IMG/VR virus record: IMGVR_UViG_3300018486_000049
Location: 1 to 39,903 of that record
DNA length: 39,903 nt
Direction: 5' to 3' (one strand)
Source: a virus
Taxonomy: Duplodnaviria > Heunggongvirae > Uroviricota > Caudoviricetes
Positions within the stretch are counted from its first letter, which is position 1. Each line of letters begins with the position of its first letter. The position numbers and the translations under genes are program-made. Below the pieces are notes generated by a model, which ran no database searches, was not told the origin of the DNA, and saw only the letters and a program-made list of their open reading frames with translations. Below, piece after piece: positions 5,602 to 32,101 of this stretch.

Positions 5602-6180
5602 TCAGGGTTCGCCGGTGGCTGACACAACGGGATTTGTCGCCGGAAATTTTTTATACAGCGTCGATATGCCCACATCAAAAATCAGTGCAACACGCTGTCG
5701 GGATTCTCCGGCCGCAATCAACCGGCCAGCCTGAGCCCATTCATCAGGCGTCAGCTTCGGCCTACGACCTCCGATCCTGCCTTGTGCCCGGGCTGCATCC
5801 AGCCCGGCGCGGGTTCGTTCGACGATTAACTCGCGTTCCATTTCTGCAAGAGCGCCCATGATGTGAAAGAAAAATCGCCCCATCGGGGTTGAGGTATCAA
5901 TACTGTCGGTCAGGCTTCTGAAATTAACCCCTCGCTGGCGAAGCTCTTCAGTCATAGAGACAAGATGGCGCATGCTACGCCCGAGCCTGTCGAGCTTCCA
6001 GACAACGAGAGTATCACCGGCATTAAGTTGCCTGAGTGCGCGATTTAACCCTGGCCTGTTTGTCGATTTACCGCTGATTTTATCCTCGAAAATTAGCTCA
6101 CATCCCGACCGTTCCAGCGCGTCACGCTGTAGCGCGGTATTTTGTTCATTTGTTGATACGCGCACATAGCCAACCTGCAT
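5602..6180 (-). CDS. Serine recombinase, DNA invertase of the Hin/Gin/Pin/Cin family
   Basis: [13 protein letters not shown]... with catalytic Ser in the RVS motif, conserved [12 protein letters not shown] and C-terminal HTH; ATG at 6180 preferred over the TTG at 6198; adjacent to an invertible segment. Confidence 0.9.
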
Positions 6181-6236
6181 TTGTTTTCCCTCATGCAAAA
6201 GCCCAAATGATGCCAGCTAGGGGGGAAAACTACATT

Positions 6237-6260
6237 TTCTTAAACGTTGGTTTAGGAGAA
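6237..6260. repeat. gix-like inversion crossover site (invertase-proximal)
   Basis: TTCTTAAACGTTGGTTTAGGAGAA; inverted copy of the half-site GGTTT(A/G)GGAGAA also at 8160-8185 and again at 39796-39819; resembles the 12-2-12 gix/hix architecture. Confidence 0.6.
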
Positions 6261-6599
6261 GCGGCTAAAAGGAATGTAGGGACAGGGGCAAATCAGATAC
6301 CTGATATGGGTAGCTTCACGCTTTCTGTTTCAGGTACTGGATATCAAAAATTACCATCAGGTTTTATTCTTCAGTGGGGCTCAATCGGCGCACCAGGCAT
6401 TGCACAGGATGTAGTAACCCATTTCCCGATTGCATTTCCAAACAGATGTCTGCGTGTTTTGGTCTCACAAGACTACACACCAGATAGCGGGGCTGTTGGT
6501 TATATTGCCTGTGCAGGTTTTAGTCCCGACCCGGTTAAATTTATATCCAGAGCCAGTACTCCTGGCCTCGGCGCTTCATTTTTAGCGTTAGGCTGTTAA
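6237..6599 (+). CDS. Alternative tail-fibre C-terminal variable segment (currently silent orientation, no own start)
   Basis: Plus-strand frame open through the crossover site reading [11 protein letters not shown]..., in the same frame relative to the site as LTYLGLGEGSA in H, so inversion would fuse it in frame to the constant part of H. Confidence 0.55.
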
Positions 6600-6620
6600 T
6601 TTAGCTATATGGAGTGAAAA

Positions 6621-7061
6621 ATGAATTACATATATTCCGCGACTACAAACTCTTTCTATCCGCTGGAGATGAAAGAGGATTACACTCAAGCTGACTCATG
6701 GCCAGATGATGCTGTTGAAGTTGATGAGCAAGTGTATATTGCGTTTTCCGGATTACCGCCGAAAGGAAAAATCCGTATCGCTGGAGAAAATGGTTTTCCT
6801 GCATGGTCTGAAATTCCACCACCAACACATGAGGAACAGATTGCTGCAGCCGAACAGGAAAAGCAGCAACTGATTAATCAGGCCAACGATTATATGAACA
6901 GTAAACAATGGCCTGGTAAAGCGGCTATTGGTCGTCTGAAAGGTGAGGAACTGGCGCAATATAATTTGTGGCTGGATTATCTGGACGCACTGGAGCTGGT
7001 CGATACTTCCGGTGCGCCAGATATTGAATGGCCTACGCCTCCGGCAGTTCAGGCCAGATGA
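6621..7061 (+). CDS. Alternative tail-fibre assembly chaperone (silent-orientation partner)
   Basis: 146 aa ORF directly after the alternative fibre segment; its C-terminus converges on that of the minus-strand chaperone. Confidence 0.7.
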   Translation: MNYIYSATTNSFYPLEMKEDYTQADSWPDDAVEVDEQVYIAFSGLPPKGKIRIAGENGFPAWSEIPPPTHEEQIAAAEQEKQQLINQANDYMNSKQWPGKAAIGRLKGEELAQYNLWLDYLDALELVDTSGAPDIEWPTPPAVQAR

Positions 7062-7638
7062 CATCCGGCGCGGTGCTGGTATCTGTTGCCGTCACCGCGT
7101 CAATGTAATCCAGCGCAGCGTTAAGTCGGGCGGTTTCTGCCTGCGTCAGATTCCGTCCGGCCTGCAATTTCAGCTGAATCAGACTAATGGAAGCCATTGC
7201 AGTATCAATCAGTGACTGACGCTGTGCTTCTGCCGCGCCTACTGCGGCGCTATGCTGTGCCACAGTATCTGTTACCCATTTCTCACCATCCCATTCATCG
7301 TATGGCGTTAACGGGGCGATAGTGGTTGTATTTTCAGGATAATCACCCGGAGCTGTGATTTCTTTCGATTCTCCTGTTTCGGTGCTATAGATGATTTCAC
7401 CGCGATGGTCTGACACATATTCCCATGAGTTTAAATCTGCCGAACGGCAGATTGCATAACCCGCCTTATGTGTGCCAGGAGCATCTAAACAGGAATATGC
7501 AGGGATACCGACACCCACAGCAAGATATTCAGTTGATGCAGAAATATACTCCCGTGTCTCACTGTCATAGTTATAAACGGTAATCTCTCCTGCCTTTGTG
7601 GCAATAAATTTACTATTCAAGATGGCGTTATACATCAT
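7033..7638 (-). CDS. G: Tail-fibre assembly chaperone gpG
   Basis: 201 aa ORF immediately after H, start overlapping the H stop. Confidence 0.8.
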   Translation of the reverse strand: MMYNAILNSKFIATKAGEITVYNYDSETREYISASTEYLAVGVGIPAYSCLDAPGTHKAGYAICRSADLNSWEYVSDHRGEIIYSTETGESKEITAPGDYPENTTTIAPLTPYDEWDGEKWVTDTVAQHSAAVGAAEAQRQSLIDTAMASISLIQLKLQAGRNLTQAETARLNAALDYIDAVTATDTSTAPDVIWPELPEA

Positions 7639-20477: not shown

Positions 20478-20508
20478 GTGAACAAGTTGAAATTATCAGC
20501 TTGTTCAC
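20478..20508. terminator. Candidate bidirectional hairpin terminator between convergent genes
   Basis: 9 bp stem GTGAACAAG / CTTGTTCAC with 13 nt loop, 8 nt after the Q stop. Confidence 0.45.
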
Positions 20509-20525
20509 TATTCTCTGTATTATCT

Positions 20526-20795
20526 CTACTGCATCCGTCCGGGTAAATCGCTTTCATTGCGTAAACGCCAAGCTAACTGTTCACGATCCCAAACTATATC
20601 GTCTTTGCTAGCCTTTCTAAAATTTGCTAGCACAGTACTGCTTATAGCGTAATTACCATTCTCATTAGTTTTGATGAACTCGTCCCCAAAGTCATTGATT
20701 AGAAATTCAACAACCTCGGACTGATACAACACACCATTAGAACGAGTGGTATTAACCATCCAGTCAACTATTTTTATCAGAGAATCATTCATCAT
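20526..20795 (-). CDS. Hypothetical small protein (about 89 aa)
   Basis: ORF in the AT-rich region between Q and the cos region; start chosen at MMNDS to limit overlap; no motif recognised. Confidence 0.45.
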   Translation of the reverse strand: MMNDSLIKIVDWMVNTTRSNGVLYQSEVVEFLINDFGDEFIKTNENGNYAISSTVLANFRKASKDDIVWDREQLAWRLRNESDLPGRMQ

Positions 20796-20994
20796 CACTC
20801 TCAGCTTTTGGAACAAATAAAACTAGAGTATCTTCATGAAAAACTCCGCGCTGGTTCTTAGCACCAATAAACCACGTACAAACTGCCATTGTAGCCGATT
20901 GGTAGTGATCAATTACCATGATTGGACCATGTCCTGTTGCATGTTTTACTTTCTGGCCCGGTGTATATTTTGCCACTCTCACGTCTCCTTTCAT
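20785..20994 (-). CDS. DUF2158-like small protein (YodC-like pattern)
   Basis: 69 aa with the G..VK...G.GP.MVI....C.WF pattern I associate with DUF2158. Confidence 0.5.
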   Translation of the reverse strand: MKGDVRVAKYTPGQKVKHATGHGPIMVIDHYQSATMAVCTWFIGAKNQRGVFHEDTLVLFVPKAESDDE

Positions 20995-21061
20995 GTGTAA
21001 GTTATCAATTTCAGAATATATCTACATTAATTGCAAGTAAACATGTTTGCGCGCGCTCGTA

Positions 21062-21074
21062 TCCCCGCCACGCC
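21062..21074. other. Candidate cos (cohesive end) site region
   Basis: Reverse complement GGCGTGGCGGGGA resembles the start of the P2/186 cohesive end as I recall it; lies in the non-coding gap between Q-side and A-side genes. Confidence 0.3.
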
Positions 21075-21453
21075 TGCCCGCTTTATGCAGTGGTTTTCAT
21101 GCACATGCATGACATGAGCAAAAGCCCGCCAGTTCTGGCGGATCTGAGCAAAGACGATCCTCAATCGATCATGCGATTTCATGCAGCATAGTCATGCACT
21201 GTCAAGGAAGTGAAAATCCGTATCTGAATGGCCACTTGAAAAACGGATCATACGGGTTTACAAAGATGAATGTTCGCTGTGAACGGGAAGCGGAAGTTAA
21301 CTTTCAGATAACATAATCCATATGCACGAGAACCTCTAAAATAGAATGGGACACCTAAGCGGGGTACTTACAACGATTCTTTCCATATTCACAGTTAACA
21401 CTCTGTTTGGCGTATTTTTATTCAAATAGCAAACACCAATAAAAGGAGTTTCC

Positions 21454-21789
21454 ATGAACAATATTCCCCCTATACCACAGTTAGGAATTTATGTCTCAAA
21501 AATCGATCCCACCCTACGTATCACTGTAACCGATGTTGATATTGTTGATGGTGAGGATGATTCTCCTGATGATGAATTGTTTTATTTAGTCCACTGGATC
21601 GAGGGGGAAGATGAAAGTGATATGACAGCAATGGGATTTGAGCTAGACCCAGTAGAGTGGCAGGCTTTCGTTGAATCTGAGCAATTAGTGTTTGAGCGTG
21701 ATCCGTACATGGATTCAATCCCCGAAAATTCAAACTTGGCAAAGATTCGGGATTTTCTCATGAAGACTAAACAGAATGATCATTCGTAA
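21454..21789 (+). CDS. Hypothetical strongly acidic protein (111 aa)
   Basis: Good ATG with GGAG upstream; Asp/Glu-rich runs (DGEDDSPDDE, EGEDESD); only plus-strand gene in this region. Confidence 0.55.
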   Translation: MNNIPPIPQLGIYVSKIDPTLRITVTDVDIVDGEDDSPDDELFYLVHWIEGEDESDMTAMGFELDPVEWQAFVESEQLVFERDPYMDSIPENSNLAKIRDFLMKTKQNDHS

Positions 21790-21943
21790 GTGTAAGCATC
21801 CATCAGGAAAATGGTTTTGTAAGTGAATCATCAACTTTTAGAGAGTCTCAGACACTCCCACTTCTGCTTCTGACACAAAGCGGACGATCACTTATCAAAA
21901 TAACCGCCCACCTTACGCCTTATTTCACTCATTGCCCAAACTA

Positions 21944-21973
21944 GCCCCCATCAGAATGAATCCTCCTGGGGGC
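21944..21973. terminator. Candidate bidirectional hairpin terminator
   Basis: GC-rich 7 bp stem GCCCCCA / TGGGGGC with 16 nt loop between convergent genes. Confidence 0.4.
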
Positions 21974-21981
21974 AACATTTC

Positions 21982-22215
21982 TTAATGCAGCCAGCTGTCG
22001 TCCTCCCACACCTTCTGCATAATTTTCATCACTTGTTTTCTTTCTTCATCCAGTTGCAGTCCGGTTAGTTCCACACCGTTAGAGCTACCTTTGCGAATGC
22101 GAATTACCGTTTTGGGATACAGGGGGCGCAGATTGCGGTAAAGCTCGGATTCAAGTGCGTCCAAGGTAGACTGGCTAATCTTCTGCTCTTTATCGATCAT
22201 TATTTCAATGCGCAT
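21982..22215 (-). CDS. DinI-like protein (C-terminal, DinI-like part of a Tum-type antirepressor)
   Basis: MRIEIMIDKEQ...VWEDDSWLH resembles DinI as recalled; SD GAGGTGA before the ATG at 22215; the frame is also open upstream to 22287. Confidence 0.7.
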   Translation of the reverse strand: MRIEIMIDKEQKISQSTLDALESELYRNLRPLYPKTVIRIRKGSSNGVELTGLQLDEERKQVMKIMQKVWEDDSWLH

Positions 22216-22225
22216 AAAAGTCACC

Positions 22226-22414
22226 TCAGCTGATGACATCCATTGAGCGGTTGTATTCGTGGCTTCTGATTTTTGCCATGAGTTCATCAGTCAATTCAGA
22301 AACCCACTGCAGAGCCAGCCCCTTCTCTTCATCACTACACTCACTAGCCGCTACAAGCTTAAGAAAAAAATCAATGCGCTGGAGCTTCAAAGACTCCAAA
22401 AAATAGTCCTGCAT
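22226..22414 (-). CDS. Small protein (62 aa), possible N-terminal part of a split Tum-like antirepressor
   Basis: GGAGG SD before the ATG; overlaps the upstream-open DinI frame out of frame; LexA box in its promoter. Confidence 0.5.
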   Translation of the reverse strand: MQDYFLESLKLQRIDFFLKLVAASECSDEEKGLALQWVSELTDELMAKIRSHEYNRSMDVIS

Positions 22415-22456
22415 CTTTCCTCCTATGACACCAAAACAATACTGTATACATAACCA

Positions 22457-22472
22457 CTGTTTATATTTACAG
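22457..22472. promoter_or_regulatory. LexA (SOS) box overlapping the promoter of the Tum-like module
   Basis: CTGTTTATATTTACAG, a perfect CTGT-N8-ACAG with AT-rich spacer, 43 bp upstream of the ATG at 22414; a half-site-like CTGTATACATAACCAC lies just upstream. Confidence 0.65.
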
Positions 22473-22566
22473 TATATAATAATCTTACTGATGTAAAACG
22501 TTTTTTTACGTTCATCGGCCTGATATGCCTGGTATTATTAAGAGCACGAATTGTTAACCCGCGTAA

Positions 22567-27974: not shown

Positions 27975-28916
27975 ATGTCAACTAATAAAATCACATTTCG
28001 CCATATTGAAGATCATCTGAAAGCCATGGTCATGCAGAATCGAGGAGGGCAAAAAGTCATTGAGAGAATACTCATGGCCTATGGTTTCAAATCACGCCAA
28101 GCATTCTGTAACCACCTTGGTATTTCACAAAGTACAATGGCTAACAGATATGCACGCGATACCTTCCCTGCTGATTGGGTTGTTATATGTTCAATGGAAA
28201 CTGGCGCATCAATCGAATGGTTAGCATTTGGTTTAGATGCTGAAGAAGGAGTGCCAGTTCCTTCGCCAGAACGGCATGCTGAAAAACAGTCTGCAGATGA
28301 ATTTTGCAATGAAGTTCACACCCCCACGATAAAGTTCGATAATGAAAACCACATGGATTTCACTCGAGGGGGTAAAGCAGCAATAGAGCGAATTGTTAAG
28401 GCTTACGGTTACAAAACGCGCCAAGCCTTAGCCGATCACCTTGGCATCTCAAAAAGCACATTAGCTACACGATACATGCGAGACATTTTTCCGGCAGACT
28501 GGATCATCCAATGCTGTTTAGAAACAGGAGTGTCTCTCGAGTGGTTATCTTTTGGTAAGGGGCATTCCAATCAAACAAAGCTAAGTGGGTTGCTTACATT
28601 AGACTGCTATGATCTACGTGACGGCAAACTTACTGATCAAAGAGAATTAATCGTTTCGAGCGAAATTTTACCTCAAAATTTAAAACATCCCTATATAGTT
28701 AATTCCGCAAATGATTCATATATCATTAGCAAAGAGGAGTATCTTAGCGATGGTCTATGGTTAGTATCTATTAACGGAGAATTTACTTTTAGAGACATAT
28801 TTAAACTTCCAAACAATCGCATCCGCGTTGAAAACACAAAATATAGCTTTGAATGCGATAAAGAAGATTTGGAATTTAATAATAAAGTTAAAGGAATAAT
28901 TAGAAAAAGGGTTTAA
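27975..28916 (+). CDS. cI: CI-like immunity repressor with tandemly duplicated N-terminal DNA-binding domain
   Basis: 313 aa; residues about 23-85 and 122-184 are an internal repeat (about 60 percent identical, IERI..AYG.K.RQA...HLGIS.ST.A.RY.RD.FPADW...C.ETG.S.EWL.FG); C-terminal domain SDGLWLVSINGEF...; divergent from Apl/Cox. Confidence 0.8.
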   Translation: MSTNKITFRHIEDHLKAMVMQNRGGQKVIERILMAYGFKSRQAFCNHLGISQSTMANRYARDTFPADWVVICSMETGASIEWLAFGLDAEEGVPVPSPERHAEKQSADEFCNEVHTPTIKFDNENHMDFTRGGKAAIERIVKAYGYKTRQALADHLGISKSTLATRYMRDIFPADWIIQCCLETGVSLEWLSFGKGHSNQTKLSGLLTLDCYDLRDGKLTDQRELIVSSEILPQNLKHPYIVNSANDSYIISKEEYLSDGLWLVSINGEFTFRDIFKLPNNRIRVENTKYSFECDKEDLEFNNKVKGIIRKRV

Positions 28917-28918
28917 CA

Positions 28919-29968
28919 ATGAGCTTTACGAAAACTATTGAATTTGCAAACTATACCTTAAATTTTGGAGAGGACAAAGTTCTCTTAGATGCTTTTGATT
29001 GCATTGTTTTTCCTTCATTTTTCGCACAAAAATACGTTAGAAAATTTAAAGATACAGAATATTTCTTTACTGACACAAAAATTATTACGTTAGATACTAC
29101 AGATTCAGATTTTATTGGTCCTATAGTTCCAACAATTGCATTGTGTGGCCGCATTATAAAAAAGACCATATTTAAACGAGATCAAATATTTCAAGATGGT
29201 CAATTAATTCGAGATCACAGGACGCTAGAAAGTCACCCCAGCTCTATTTTTATTCTTATGCTTAATGAGCACAGATTAATGCTTTGCAAAGAGGTTTCTG
29301 GAGCCCCTACCCTAGAAGAATTTGAAAATACTAGCAAGTATTGCCTTGCACAGCGATATAATTCTTTTGTGGATTACGAAGTAAAAAAAAATAAAAGAAT
29401 TAGAAAGAAAAAATCATACATTGATCGACTGTATAAAAAAGATATTTATCGTAAACTAGGAGCCCCCAAATTACGGGTTACCCCCTTAACAGACCCAAGA
29501 TCATTGAGCAATTTTGTTGAACTCTTTTCTGTTGTTAATAGATTATCAATTGAGTTATTACCAACAAATAGTGAAAATATATCTCTTGATGGCTTCTGGA
29601 GGAAATTTGAACAAGAAAAAGAAGAACTTAATAGTAGTAAAGCTCAATTAGTATACACAAATAAAAATGAAGATGGTTTAAATTCTGATGCCGTCATTCA
29701 AAAAACAACAAGTGCAACCCGAATGGCCAACTCTAAAGTAATTATCAGTGGTAAAGATGAACACGGAGCAAGGCTATCAGGGAATAATGATAGTTTTACT
29801 CTAAAAGCATCAAGGCCACAACTTAGTTCTGATTTGGAAAGAGCTGCTCAAGAGGCGTATTCTGCATTCACAGAATTAAAGGATGAAGGAAATATTATTA
29901 TTCCAGAACGTGAAGATTATACTAAAATTTTTTCCAAGTTAACATCAATAATTTCTAGGTGGCTATAG
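28919..29968 (+). CDS. Cargo protein 1 of repressor-linked cassette, function unknown (349 aa, soluble)
   Basis: ATG 2 nt after the repressor stop; AT-rich; basic patch KKNKRIRKKKSYIDRLYKKDIYRK; no catalytic motif recognised. Confidence 0.7.
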   Translation: MSFTKTIEFANYTLNFGEDKVLLDAFDCIVFPSFFAQKYVRKFKDTEYFFTDTKIITLDTTDSDFIGPIVPTIALCGRIIKKTIFKRDQIFQDGQLIRDHRTLESHPSSIFILMLNEHRLMLCKEVSGAPTLEEFENTSKYCLAQRYNSFVDYEVKKNKRIRKKKSYIDRLYKKDIYRKLGAPKLRVTPLTDPRSLSNFVELFSVVNRLSIELLPTNSENISLDGFWRKFEQEKEELNSSKAQLVYTNKNEDGLNSDAVIQKTTSATRMANSKVIISGKDEHGARLSGNNDSFTLKASRPQLSSDLERAAQEAYSAFTELKDEGNIIIPEREDYTKIFSKLTSIISRWL

Positions 29969-29969
29969 T

Positions 29970-30575
29970 ATGAAATATACATTCAACCCAGAAGATCTGA
30001 CCAAAGAGCGATCTTTGCATGATGTTTACAAATTAACTAAAAAAATAAAGGTCAATTCATTTGACTTTTATTTCACATTATTGTTAGTGATATTATTATC
30101 TATTAATGCTTTTTGTCTATCTTCATCACCAGAGTTAATTTCATCTATTAGACAATGGACACCTTTAGTATTCGGATTCACTACAACAACATTAGGTTTT
30201 TTAATTACTGGATTTACAATATTTGCAACCATAAATAAACCTGAACTTTTCCTTTCATTAATGGAGTATAAGCATCCATTATACGGGATAAGTTACTTAA
30301 AATATGTTTATGGTGTATTTATGAGAGTATTTATATATTTCATATTTTGGTCTGTTATCTATCTTTTAGTCCTTCTTTTCGGGCAAGAAAATGGATTGGC
30401 TACAAAATTACTCAGAGCCTTAATGTTTTCTCATTGCACTAAAGTTGTTGGAGTTCAAATACTATATATACTCGTAGGAAGCAGTGCAGTGTTCCTTGTA
30501 TTAACTTTAAAAACTTTCCTGTTCAATATTTATGCTATGTTAATGCAATCTCTACGCTGGGAAGTAGAAAGATAA
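29970..30575 (+). CDS. Cargo protein 2, small multi-pass membrane protein (201 aa)
   Basis: ATG 1 nt after gene 1 stop with AGGTGG SD; about four hydrophobic helices; AT-rich. Confidence 0.7.
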   Translation: MKYTFNPEDLTKERSLHDVYKLTKKIKVNSFDFYFTLLLVILLSINAFCLSSSPELISSIRQWTPLVFGFTTTTLGFLITGFTIFATINKPELFLSLMEYKHPLYGISYLKYVYGVFMRVFIYFIFWSVIYLLVLLFGQENGLATKLLRALMFSHCTKVVGVQILYILVGSSAVFLVLTLKTFLFNIYAMLMQSLRWEVER

Positions 30576-30611
30576 AATTAACCTCAATGTATGAATCTTA
30601 ATTCATATACA

Positions 30612-30640
30612 TTGACACTGGTTATACATACAGTAAAAAT
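30612..30640 (+). promoter_or_regulatory. Candidate promoter for int downstream of the cargo cassette
   Basis: Perfect TTGACA -35, 17 bp spacer, weak AAAAAT -10, preceded by an AT-rich inverted repeat (30587-30612). Confidence 0.3.
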
Positions 30641-30664
30641 GCTCTCCACTGGAGGGCATTTTTT

Positions 30665-31717
30665 ATGGCAGTACGAAAACTCACCACAGGAAAATGGCTA
30701 TGCGAATGTTACCCCGCGGGACGTAGTGGACGTCGTGTGCGTAAACAATTCGCCACCAAAGGTGAAGCTCTGGCTTTTGAGCGTCACACGATGGAAGAAA
30801 CCGAAGCAAAGCCCTGGCTGGGTGAATCAGTGGATCGTCGAACACTGAAAGACGTGGTTGAGCTATGGTTCAAACTACATGGTAAATCTCTGACAGCTGG
30901 GCAGCATGTCTATGACAAATTGCTGTTGATAGTTGACGCTCTGGGCAATCCCCTTGCAACCGATCTCACCTCTAAAATGTTTGCCCACTATCGAGATAAA
31001 CGCCTGACAGGAGAGATCTACTTCAGCGAAAAATGGAAGAAAGGAGCAAGCCCGGTCACCATTAACCTGGAGCAAAGCTATCTTAGTAGTGTTTTTAGCG
31101 AACTATCCCGCCTGGGCGAATGGTCGTATCCGAACCCACTGGAGAACATGCGAAAATTCACCATCGCAGAAAAAGAGATGGCATGGCTTACCCATGAGCA
31201 GATTGTTGAATTACTGGCTGATTGCAAACGTCAGGACCCAATTCTGGCACTGGTAGTTAAGATATGCTTAAGCACAGGCGCACGCTGGCGAGAAGCCGTA
31301 AATCTTACTCGTTCACAGGTGACCAAATACCGAATTACCTTTGTAAGAACGAAGGGGAAGAAAAACAGAAGCATCCCTATCAGTAAAGAGCTTTACGAAG
31401 AGATCATGGCGCTTGATGGGTTCAATTTCTTCACAGACTGCTATTTTCAATTTTTATCCGTGATGGAAAAAACGTCTATCGTGCTCCCTCGCGGTCAACT
31501 CACACACGTTCTGCGCCATACGTTTGCAGCGCACTTCATGATGTCGGGTGGAAACATCTTGGCCTTACAAAAAATTCTCGGACATCACGATATAAAAATG
31601 ACGATGCGTTACGCACATCTGGCACCGGATCATCTGGAAACGGCGCTCCGTTTCAATCCTCTGGCAACGCTGCCAAGTGGCGACAAAGTGGCGGCAGCGG
31701 TTGGCATTACCCCGTAA
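30665..31717 (+). CDS. int: Tyrosine integrase (P2/186 Int family)
   Basis: 350 aa with C-terminal catalytic signature LRHTFAAH...GHHDIKMTMRYAHL. Confidence 0.9.
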   Translation: MAVRKLTTGKWLCECYPAGRSGRRVRKQFATKGEALAFERHTMEETEAKPWLGESVDRRTLKDVVELWFKLHGKSLTAGQHVYDKLLLIVDALGNPLATDLTSKMFAHYRDKRLTGEIYFSEKWKKGASPVTINLEQSYLSSVFSELSRLGEWSYPNPLENMRKFTIAEKEMAWLTHEQIVELLADCKRQDPILALVVKICLSTGARWREAVNLTRSQVTKYRITFVRTKGKKNRSIPISKELYEEIMALDGFNFFTDCYFQFLSVMEKTSIVLPRGQLTHVLRHTFAAHFMMSGGNILALQKILGHHDIKMTMRYAHLAPDHLETALRFNPLATLPSGDKVAAAVGITP

Positions 31718-31880
31718 TAACCACCACTGACCACCAACCCAACTTATTGTTTTTACTCTAACTTATTGTTTTCATTAACCCGTTTACATAAATGGGTTTT
31801 TTGTTGCCTGAAATTTATGCCGTTTAAAATCATGATGTTAGAAGCACTGTTTTTTAACGATGGCGACAAATTGGCGGCAG
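31678..31880. repeat. att-like junction flanked by an imperfect 20 bp direct repeat
   Basis: TGGCGACAAAGTGGCGGCAG (31678-31697, inside the int 3-prime end) and TGGCGACAAATTGGCGGCAG (31861-31880, next to the ogr stop) flank an AT-rich 160 bp segment. Confidence 0.45.
31741..31772. repeat. Tandem 13 bp direct repeats in the att region (possible Int arm-type sites)
   Basis: AACTTATTGTTTT at 31741-31753 and 31760-31772; followed by a weak hairpin plus T-run (31777-31802). Confidence 0.4.
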
Positions 31881-31882
31881 AG

Positions 31883-32101
31883 TCAAAGAGAGAGCACCAC
31901 CTGTCCTGATTTCATTGGATGCGGCTGAACCGGATTTGACTCTTTTGGCGTTGCAATCGAACGAACAAAAGTTTCATGGGTAACAAAAGTATGGCTGCAG
32001 TTAATGTTCTGGCACTGGTTGTAACGCTCTTTGGTCAATGAAGATACCTGAAAACTGCTGCGAGTATGGGCGGCACTTCCACACAGTGGGCAAATCATCA
32101 T
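31883..32101 (-). CDS. ogr: Late gene activator Ogr/Delta-family zinc-finger protein
   Basis: 72 aa from MMICPLCGSAAH... with CPLC...CQNINCSH zinc-binding pattern matching Ogr as recalled. Confidence 0.85.
   Translation of the reverse strand: MMICPLCGSAAHTRSSFQVSSLTKERYNQCQNINCSHTFVTHETFVRSIATPKESNPVQPHPMKSGQVVLSL

Follow-up and report, generated by a model that had tools for sequence, protein, structure and literature searches.

The window, i.e., the whole analysed stretch of 39,903 nucleotides, carries two closely spaced genes between the repressor gene cI and the integrase gene int of a 186/P2-like temperate phage. The region comprises the following features:

27975..28916, + strand: cI repressor, 313 aa; stop codon TAA, then 'CA', then the ATG of gene 1
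28526..30600, no strand assigned: AT-rich mosaic block, comprising the part of cI that codes for the CI C-terminal domain and both cargo genes
28919..29968, + strand: gene 1, 349 aa, soluble, RexA-like, at the DUF4747 periphery; stop codon TAG, then 'T'
29970..30575, + strand: gene 2, 201 aa, four-TM membrane protein, proposed RexB-like effector
30586..30613, + strand: inverted repeat AATGTATGA..TCATATACATT, right border of the variable block, from sequence, RNA fold and a six-locus alignment
30634..30664, + strand: hairpin followed by T6, abutting the int start codon, from RNA fold
30665..31717, + strand: tyrosine integrase (int), 350 aa; Pfam Int_N (5.4e-32) and Phage_integrase (7.1e-22)

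A first-pass annotation had described two open reading frames 2 nt behind cI and 1 nt apart, and its coordinates match exactly. It had also called both genes conspicuously AT-rich, in agreement with a GC content of 0.326 for gene 1 and 0.297 for gene 2 (30-33 %) against 0.481 for int and 0.518 (52 %) for the whole window. At the local composition, a stop-free frame arises by chance with a probability of 3e-13 for the length of gene 1 and of 1.5e-7 for that of gene 2. Both reading frames are considered real genes because these probabilities are tiny and homologues are present at 26-77 % identity. Presumably, cI is the first and int the downstream gene of a lysogenic operon. The gene distances of 2 nt and 1 nt, the common strand and the lysogenic operon pL-cI-int of phage 186 argue for the predicted co-transcription. 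A promoter consensus scan of the region performed no better than on shuffled sequences, and Rfam and tRNA scans of the window yielded no matches. The consensus scan for terminators gave a weak terminator-like site 50 nt inside gene 1, which was counted against the interpretation as a RexAB-type system developed below.

At the right border, the arms of the inverted repeat were conserved in sister prophages and the loops differed in the alignment of six loci. The RNA fold of positions 30576-30675 had a free energy of -33.5 kcal/mol (z = -6.7), and none of 200 shuffled sequences was as stable. The hairpin in front of int contains the GGAGG of int; it resembles a terminator and is predicted from the fold to sequester the Shine-Dalgarno sequence. 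It belongs to the conserved backbone, and the sister locus L002 keeps the stem with a different sequence. This hairpin had been missed by the terminator consensus scan and was confirmed by folding.

Gene 1 codes for a RexA/RdgC-like protein

The gene 1 protein has an alpha/beta fold of the RexA/RdgC type. Its secondary structure elements follow the order of RexA, a split globular domain with an inserted four-strand, four-helix domain, the latter corresponding to the beta/alpha dimerisation domain of the RdgC-like RexA fold. The Lys/Arg-rich central patch recorded in the first-pass annotation was located to residues 151-182 with 13 K/R, including KKNKRIRKKK from residue 156. Together, the RdgC-like fold and this basic helix are an indirect hint that the protein may act as a dimer binding DNA non-specifically. 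Within the family, N11, H118 and N217 are invariant and R41, R87, Q89 and E125 nearly so. The cluster N11/H118/N217 possibly marks a so far unrecognised ligand-binding or catalytic site in a large RexA-like family.

No family had been recognised for this protein at first; a family was found at the periphery of DUF4747 and RexA-like proteins. DUF4747 (PF15931) matched four of 73 diverse relatives of gene 1 (best E value 2.6e-4) and was the only recurrent Pfam family among them; precomputed PF15931 flags were present in five of 25 clusters. PGAP names WP_001556499.1 a 'DUF4747 family protein'. Gene 1 itself had no match to DUF4747 of Pfam, and scans of Pfam, PADLOC, PHROGs and NCBIfam with both cargo proteins were without matches. 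The RexA models of Pfam (PF15969) and PADLOC yielded nothing for gene 1 at E values up to 1, and lambda RexA scored 1e-97 and 9e-110 with the same models. In hhalign, the family profile of gene 1 against the RexA family profile had a probability of 2.4 % and an E value of 0.02, which is not significant, and profiles of 22 and 73 gene 1 sequences revealed no significant homology to lambda RexA. All three hhalign runs aligned a short to 75-column stretch in one common region that makes sense topologically. PDB sequences searched with a gene 1 profile gave nothing.

A HEPN nuclease was also considered, as the first-pass annotation had pointed to a single Rx4H motif. The motif RTLESH is present at residues 101-106, but it reads ELETAP in the other subgroup, and R101 and H106 are not conserved. 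The alpha/beta, RexA-like fold is likewise incompatible with the all-alpha domain required, and HEPN was rejected.

Gene 2 codes for a conserved four-helix membrane protein

Hydropathy analysis of the gene 2 protein gave four hydrophobic segments, in line with the about four TM helices initially assigned. An AlphaFold2 model (pLDDT 81) presented four long helices at residues 30-50, 53-88, 109-137 and 155-200. Gene 2 is thus an adjacent, co-oriented gene for a four-TM membrane protein, as expected for a RexAB-type pair. Its conservation is on a par with that of gene 1 and includes invariant intramembrane motifs; the conserved motifs are LGFLxxGFTIFxT, LKY and KxFxFNxY..RWE.

The RexB models of Pfam (PF15968) and PADLOC did not match gene 2, whereas both do match the protein of lambda. 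An hhalign comparison with lambda RexB had a probability of 0.3 % and revealed nothing, and a Foldseek search of BFVD with the gene 2 model yielded nothing at E values up to 1e-3. Near the top of the BFVD list, a 165-aa Sbash protein had the best TM-score there (0.40/0.46), without significance; in length it matches Sbash gp31.

The pair is inherited together and resides in defence contexts

A homologue of gene 2 lies directly downstream of the gene 1 homologue in every complete locus examined. The partner was co-inherited in all ten complete species-representative loci and is also present in L005, L008, L009, L026 and L027; the pairing holds even for members of only 26-29 % identity. The clade represented by the cassette spans the Proteobacteria with about 700 clusters at 50 % identity, and the protein sequences of the pair are conserved in Gamma- and Betaproteobacteria, with identities between 26 and 99 %. 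In E. coli the cassette is rare and patchy, being present in 11 of 5,426 complete genomes, and it occurs also in Klebsiella phages. Most non-enterobacterial loci carry the pair without a CI nearby, e.g., after hsdR or beside SNF2 or HEPN_Swt1. Type I restriction-modification systems directly precede or neighbour the pair in L008, L016 and L019, SNF2/NOV_C adjoins it in L024 and HEPN_Swt1 in L009. The pair is mobile and located in defence contexts. A literature search with the protein accessions and the phage 4LV2017 found no functional study.

The rarity in E. coli together with the AT-rich, foreign composition would fit non-functional hitchhiking DNA or decaying genes. However, both long reading frames are intact in very AT-rich DNA, against the tiny chance probabilities given above, and the range of protein-level conservation and the invariant motifs effectively refute this explanation. 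Another role in lysogenic conversion, either as a toxin-antitoxin-like addiction module or as a superinfection-exclusion membrane protein that blocks injection with the aid of a cytoplasmic helper, appears very unlikely. A membrane protein expressed from the lysogenic operon of a prophage is also typical of Sie-type exclusion, and lambda RexB also affects the Clp proteolysis of antitoxins (PMC11077077). But the RexA-like fold of gene 1 and the strict pairing across contexts point to a Rex architecture, and the scans of Pfam, PHROGs, NCBIfam and PADLOC found no toxin-antitoxin or Sie family.

A mosaic replacement in a cI-int defence hotspot

The product of cI, named 'phage repressor protein CI' by PGAP, contains two HTH stretches of PF07022 (Phage_CI_repr, 2.5e-57) and one C-terminal domain of PF16452 (1.3e-19). 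Nucleotide homology (blastn) to the sister loci L002 and L003 ends at 28525/28561 and resumes at 30601/30607. The left edge of the non-homologous AT-rich block hence lies inside cI, after the second HTH, and not at the cI stop codon. The GC content is 0.43 in the N-terminal part of CI, declines to 0.34 in the C-terminal domain and reaches 0.33 and 0.30 in the cargo genes. Among cassette-bearing loci, the identity of the CI C-terminal domain tracks that of the cassette (99/57/50/48/36 %), and sister prophages that are much closer in HTH and int reach only 27-38 %. The first-pass annotation had assumed a horizontally acquired insertion. The acquisition stands, but a clean insertion does not: the CI C-terminal domain is part of what was exchanged, which makes the event a mosaic replacement.

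The slot is empty in phage 186, as its cI and int share 1 nt; the earlier statement on P2-type phages that int directly follows the repressor thus holds for 186. A check of synteny in related prophages, suggested with the first-pass annotation, thus gave an empty slot in 186 and alternative cargo in sisters. In sister E. coli prophages the slot holds Old (1.4e-234), PDC-S20 (a KAP NTPase), PDC-M11A/B or unknown genes, among the latter at least a 325-aa protein without assigned identity. The flanks of this unrelated cargo are conserved: the CI N-terminal part shows about 88 % DNA identity, and the integrase protein has 99.4-99.7 % identity to its counterparts in sister prophages with other cargo. 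At the rcdA-ybjJ site, 186-like prophages of E. coli document a cI-int defence hotspot with this Rex-like pair among its cargo. Such a hotspot has already been described for P2-related Vibrio phages (K139-like; Rousset et al. 2022, PMC9122126); that study, in which Rex is not mentioned, assigned other loci to the E. coli P2 hotspots. The Vibrio K139-like hotspot and the P2 Old gene resemble the present locus in the variable cargo between repressor and integrase. The Vibrionaceae hotspot as published differs in that the exchanged unit here also takes in the CI C-terminal domain.

The co-inheritance of this domain raises the question of a function within the phage's own genetic switch, with the RexA-like protein acting on CI or operator DNA, the membrane protein tuning this action, and defence being secondary or absent. 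For lambda RexA, non-specific DNA binding and, in bacterial two-hybrid assays (BACTH), interactions with CI and Cro are described; it biases the switch even without RexB, stabilising the lytic state (PMC11077077). Nevertheless, we regard such a role as rather unlikely: most non-enterobacterial loci carry the pair without a nearby CI, bona fide defence genes occupy the same slot in sister prophages, and a simpler explanation of the co-inheritance is recombination within the conserved flanks, at the HTH and near int. A further, improbable idea treats the RexA-like pair and the CI C-terminal domain as a single functional unit that is exchanged as a whole; the RexA-like protein would then act via its cognate domain or be adjusted to it. 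It would, for example, sense the loss or cleavage of CI or modulate CI cooperativity, the latter having been proposed for lambda RexA. If so, 'immunity' and 'exclusion' would be swapped together between 186-like prophages. Since the pair also occurs without any CI, a functional coupling between domain and cassette was treated as unproven.

Comparison with Rex-like systems

The gene order cI-gene 1-gene 2 equals cI-rexA-rexB of phage lambda (PDB 8TWQ for RexA; PF15969/PF15968). Neither protein has significant sequence similarity to its lambda counterpart, and the lambda proteins are smaller, with 279 vs 349 aa for gene 1 and 144 vs 201 aa for gene 2. Compared with lambda RexA, a long basic helix at residues ~132-164 is additional in gene 1. 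The carrier is a 186/P2-like and not a lambdoid phage, and the pair described here is also found outside prophages, beside restriction-modification systems. The stand-alone, recombination-associated protein RdgC of E. coli (PDB 2OWL) has no membrane partner, unlike gene 1. Lambda Rex has been known for 70 years, yet its mechanism is unsettled, as regards both the trigger and whether RexB acts as a channel (PMC11077077, PMC12894663). In the prophage P1 of P. putida, RexABpp corresponds to PP_5643/PP_5644, and two other genes separate it from cI (PMC12894663).

In the literature, DUF4747 has been linked to RexA, Sbash gp30, CarolAnn gp44 and Butters gp30, and 'DUF4747/CarolAnn' is listed among immune operons (CarolAnn/Sbash: PMC6426606, PMC6426596, PMC13373217). 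By description, CarolAnn gp44/gp43 of a Gordonia phage and gp30/gp31 of the mycobacteriophage Sbash each combine a soluble, weakly DUF4747-related protein with a four-TM protein. Lysogens of CarolAnn express the pair together with the repressor, and the phenotype of CarolAnn and Sbash is abortive-infection-like (PMC6426606, PMC6426596, PMC13373217). These actinobacteriophage proteins differ from the present pair by smaller membrane partners (165-178 aa) and by specific actinophage proteins as triggers.

Butters gp30/gp31 of a mycobacteriophage similarly pairs a four-TM protein with a soluble one that matches DUF4747 weakly, and it is prophage-expressed; there, the soluble protein acts as effector and its membrane partner is not required (PMC7542560). 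The same polarity may be considered here, the RexA-like protein being the antiviral or toxic effector that the membrane protein only sequesters or restrains until infection, as reported for Butters (PMC7542560; summarised in PMC12894663). The invariant N11, H118 and N217 and the near-invariant R41, R87, Q89 and E125 could form an active or ligand site. We nonetheless judge this arrangement unlikely, as the membrane protein is the effector in three of five characterised Rex-like systems, besides lambda itself (PMC12894663), and the conservation of gene 2 with its invariant intramembrane motifs fits an effector better than a passive anchor.

Proposed function and significance

The two genes are most likely a distant relative of lambda RexA/RexB, from which we infer their function. 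The cassette is probably a RexAB-type two-component system for phage exclusion by abortive infection that a 186/P2-like temperate phage carries in its cI-int hotspot as cargo for lysogenic conversion. A role as exclusion or abortive-infection cargo, with a soluble sensor and a membrane effector, had already been suspected in the first-pass annotation and gains support from the RexA fold of gene 1, the co-inherited four-TM gene 2, the order cI-A-B and the slot itself, which is vacant in 186 and filled with Old, PDC-S20 or PDC-M11 in sister prophages. By analogy with lambda RexAB, CarolAnn gp44/gp43, Sbash gp30/gp31 and RexABpp of P. putida, both genes would be transcribed with cI from the lysogenic promoter. 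The gene 1 protein, probably a DNA-binding dimer in the cytoplasm, would sense a product of the infecting phage and then activate the gene 2 protein in the inner membrane. Once activated, the membrane protein would dissipate the membrane potential or integrity and ATP would fall, so that the growth of both the cell and the invading phage may stop.

Only five RexAB-like systems were counted as described in a 2026 paper. The cassette represents a large uncharacterised clade that is missed by the RexA/RexB models of PADLOC and Pfam. It is natural in 186/P2-like prophages of E. coli and Klebsiella and is therefore directly testable with standard coliphage panels and genetics. The cI-int hotspot of E. 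coli 186-like prophages is a compact source of further candidate systems.

Gene content and composition of the cassette

Two genes on the same strand occupied the space between the repressor gene cI and the integrase gene int, here named the cI-int slot:

27975-28916, plus strand: cI, 313 aa, TAA stop; two tandem Phage_CI_repr HTH domains, then a single CI C-terminal domain
28919-29968, plus strand: gene 1, 349 aa, TAG stop; start 2 nt past cI
29970-30575, plus strand: gene 2, 201 aa; start 1 nt past the gene 1 TAG
30586-30664, plus strand: conserved three-part border element between cargo slot and int
from 30665, plus strand: int, after gene 2

Positions, lengths and spacing of both ORFs agreed with the first-pass annotation, as did their AT-richness: the GC content was 0.326 in gene 1 and 0.297 in gene 2, lower than in int (0.481) or the whole window (0.518). 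At the base composition of the cassette, the chance of a stop-free frame was 3e-13 for the length of gene 1 and 1.5e-7 for that of gene 2. These low probabilities and the many homologues of both proteins identify the ORFs as real genes, and a reading as junk DNA was excluded by the conservation data. The gene 1 protein had been described as soluble with a basic patch; a hydrophobic segment was absent and 13 lysine or arginine residues lay within residues 151-182. Hydropathy revealed in the gene 2 protein four hydrophobic segments, matching the proposed four transmembrane (TM) helices. An integrase gene next to the repressor gene was the right reference state, since cI and int share one base in the annotated lysogenic operon of phage 186, pL-cI-int-orf69.

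Family and fold of the gene 1 protein

Scans of Pfam, PADLOC, PHROGs and NCBIfam yielded no match for either protein. A word-indexed search retrieved 25 clusters. With a profile, 704 clusters among 1.84 billion representatives were matched at E up to 1e-3, most of them of 320-350 aa; thus the family is large but unnamed. The AlphaFold model, based on a 22-sequence alignment, was confident (pLDDT 82, pTM 0.83). In the Foldseek search proposed earlier, the sole PDB match at E up to 1e-3 was lambda RexA (8TWQ; E 7.5e-6, probability 1.0), at a low global TM-score of 0.29-0.35. From N- to C-terminus the model comprises a six-strand sheet domain, a middle domain of four to five strands and four helices, and C-terminal helices, the element order of RexA with its split globular domain and inserted dimerisation domain. 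A further long basic helix (132-164) explains most of the length by which the protein exceeds RexA. The gene 1 protein is very probably RexA-like in fold. RexA was paired with RdgC in the paper on its crystal structure (PMC11077077). A HEPN identity, hinted at earlier from a single Rx4H motif, was ruled out: the motif is not conserved in the family and the fold is not HEPN.

The link is weak at the sequence level. The PGAP name is sometimes 'DUF4747 family protein', precomputed PF15931 flags were present for 5 of the 25 clusters, and DUF4747 was the only Pfam family matched repeatedly by relatives (4 of 73 diverse members, best E 2.6e-4). Compared profile against profile with 26 aligned RexA sequences, the family gave no significant result (prob 2.4%, E 0.02); the alignment obtained pairs residues 243-321 with RexA 187-263, the structurally equivalent region. 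DUF4747 has been linked to RexA, Sbash gp30, CarolAnn gp44 and Butters gp30 (PMC6426596, PMC6426606, PMC7542560), and 'DUF4747/CarolAnn' operons, often downstream of R-M systems, have been counted as immune operons (PMC13373217). An alignment of the 73 members had N11, H118, N217 and G278 invariant and R41, R87, Q89, P107 and E125 nearly so (window numbering); this set of polar residues could indicate a site for binding or catalysis, undescribed for RexA.

Gene 2 and its strict pairing with gene 1

The gene 2 model (pLDDT 81) has four long helices (30-50, 53-88, 109-137, 155-200) that match the hydropathy peaks. The basic N-terminal 30 residues suggest, by the positive-inside rule, an N-in/C-in topology, as is also predicted for RexB and PP_5644. 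Similarity to RexB was not detectable, and a fold search in BFVD gave no significant match. Near the top of the list, the best TM-scores (0.40/0.46; not significant, E 1.7) belonged to a 165-aa Sbash protein of gp31 length, a hint only of resemblance. A gene 2 homologue lay directly downstream of every complete gene 1 homologue examined. This pairing was kept in Enterobacter, Silvania, Cronobacter and metagenomic 186-like prophages, in 10 of 10 complete loci of species-representative genomes (Vibrio, Photobacterium, Pseudidiomarina, Colwelliaceae, Marinomonas, Alcanivorax, Halioglobus, Denitromonas, Rhodocyclales), and at two loci with gene 1 homologues of only 26-29% identity. Invariant gene 2 motifs were LGFLxxGFTIFxT in TM2, LKY in the central loop and KxFxFNxY..RWE at the end of TM4.

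The cI-int slot as a defence hotspot

The whole 3.9-kb region was present in only 11 of 5,426 complete E. coli genomes (97.7-99.9% identity). Klebsiella phage 4LV2017 and a group of Kp48xx phage records had it at 98.9%; the same integrase occurs in more than 1,100 E. coli genomes. A synteny comparison, as proposed earlier, established that the cassette is not uniform among relatives. Sister E. coli prophages at rcdA-ybjJ with an integrase 99.4-99.7% identical and an N-terminal cI part about 88% identical in DNA carried different cargo between cI and int: a 589-aa protein matching P2 Old (L002; PADLOC Old, 1.4e-234), KAP-family NTPases (PDC-S20; L012, 2.9e-171; L013, 8.7e-78), a three-gene set including an extra 260-aa protein (L014; PDC-M11A/B) and a 325-aa protein without PADLOC match (L003), a further defence candidate. 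The Old, PDC-S20 and PDC-M11A/B cargo at the same position marks the slot as a defence hotspot; P2-related Vibrio phages have one of the same kind between their cI and int (Rousset et al., PMC9122126). The PDC-S20 cargo occurs with or without a small YdcA-family gene, and H98 has a Panacea-domain protein near int.

A two-gene insertion had been proposed. The variable cargo between cI and int stood, but the exchanged block also takes in the CI C-terminal domain. Homology to the sister prophages (blastn) ends within cI at 28525-28561, just past the second HTH domain, and restarts at 30601-30607, 26-32 nt past the gene 2 stop; GC falls already in the part of cI encoding the C-terminal domain (0.336). 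This domain was 99, 57, 50, 48 and 36% identical to the window in the cassette-bearing loci L004, L015, L026, L027 and L005, co-diverging with gene 1 (99, 77, 77, 73 and 45% across the five loci); int identity was not correlated. In sisters with other cargo the domain was 27-38% identical and gene 1 absent, at an int identity of 99.4-99.7%; the second HTH ranged within 68-84% in both groups. Borders, GC drop and co-divergence define a mobile unit of CI C-terminal domain plus cargo, bounded by the conserved DNA that encodes the HTH and by a conserved element close to int. Homologous recombination in these flanks is the simplest reading of the exchange. The window CI, with 313 aa and two HTH, differs from phage 186 CI (192 aa, one HTH); among relatives, CI proteins with one HTH (187-216 aa) and with two (299-314 aa) both occur, and L013 carries a tandem pair of CI genes.

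This co-inheritance, and the action of lambda RexA in the switch of its phage, would fit a pair acting primarily in the phage's own switch. The frequent occurrence of the pair without CI speaks against such a role. A functional coupling of the CI C-terminal domain with the RexA-like protein is a possible but unlikely reading. The pair directly follows hsdM-hsdS-hsdR (L008) or hsdS-AAA_13-hsdR (L019), adjoins hsdM/hsdS (L016), an SNF2 helicase and NOV_C protein (L024) or a HEPN_Swt1 protein (L009), and is found in an unrelated prophage at its integrase end (L030); in L005, L015, L026 and L027 it again occupies the cI-int slot. As a self-contained mobile module, the pair shows a strong association with defence islands and requires no adjacent CI gene.

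Cargo-int border and other features of the window

The border element consists of an inverted repeat (ATGTATG..CATACAT) with a different loop in every cargo variant, a -35-like hexamer TTGACA at 30612, and a 9-13-bp hairpin plus T6 that contains the GGAGG of int and ends at its ATG. The RNA fold had -33.5 kcal/mol (z -6.7), and the stem is retained in L002 with different sequence. The element may stop or attenuate the lysogenic transcript ahead of int, or occlude the int ribosome-binding site. At 31718-31900 the window has the excised (attP) configuration, int being followed by ogr-like and D genes; in E. coli chromosomes rcdA comes after this int, homology with the prophage junction stops at 31818, and the prophage copies adjoin rcdA-ybjJ. 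Further features were:

5602-6198, minus strand: serine invertase (Resolvase + HTH_7), within 5602-7638
20480-22560: second island of high AT content (GC 0.40-0.43), separating the portal gene from replication gene A
31777-31798: terminator-like hairpin

Next to the invertase are the fragment of a tail-fibre C-terminus (Gp53-like_C) and two genes for tail-fibre assembly (Caudo_TAP) in opposite orientations; 5602-7638 coincides with an AT-rich dip and resembles an invertible segment for host range of the Mu G/P1 C type. The ORFs of the second island, at the position of the P2 tin/old hotspot, are all small and comprise DUF6953, a weak match to DUF2158, a DinI-like protein and two unassigned ORFs (111 aa, 62 aa).

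Proposed function

The cassette combines a soluble protein of RexA fold, a co-inherited four-TM protein, the lambda order cI-A-B with placement 2 nt behind cI, and a context of defence hotspot and islands. A function in RexAB-type phage exclusion is probable. By analogy with lambda RexAB, CarolAnn gp44/43, Sbash gp30/31 and RexABpp, the P. putida pair PP_5643/PP_5644, both genes would be transcribed with cI from lysogenic promoters. The gene 1 protein may act as a dimeric DNA-binding sensor of a protein or a replication/recombination intermediate of the infecting phage and activate the gene 2 protein; the membrane would then lose potential or integrity, ATP would drop, growth would stop and the infection would be aborted. 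Besides a primary role in the switch, rival explanations are a polarity of the Butters type, in which the soluble protein is the effector, and other roles in lysogenic conversion.

The cassette does not match the RexA and RexB families as defined by sequence and barely touches DUF4747; the same holds for the accepted actinophage and Pseudomonas 'Rex-like' systems. It escapes PADLOC, and a literature search found no publication on the E. coli/Klebsiella cassette; the RexAB-like systems described number only five, according to a 2026 paper (PMC12894663). The cassette is built, and predicted to work, like a RexAB-type system. To a specialist this is no surprise; as the predicted representative of a large uncharacterised clade, the cassette is useful and easily tested in E. 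coli.
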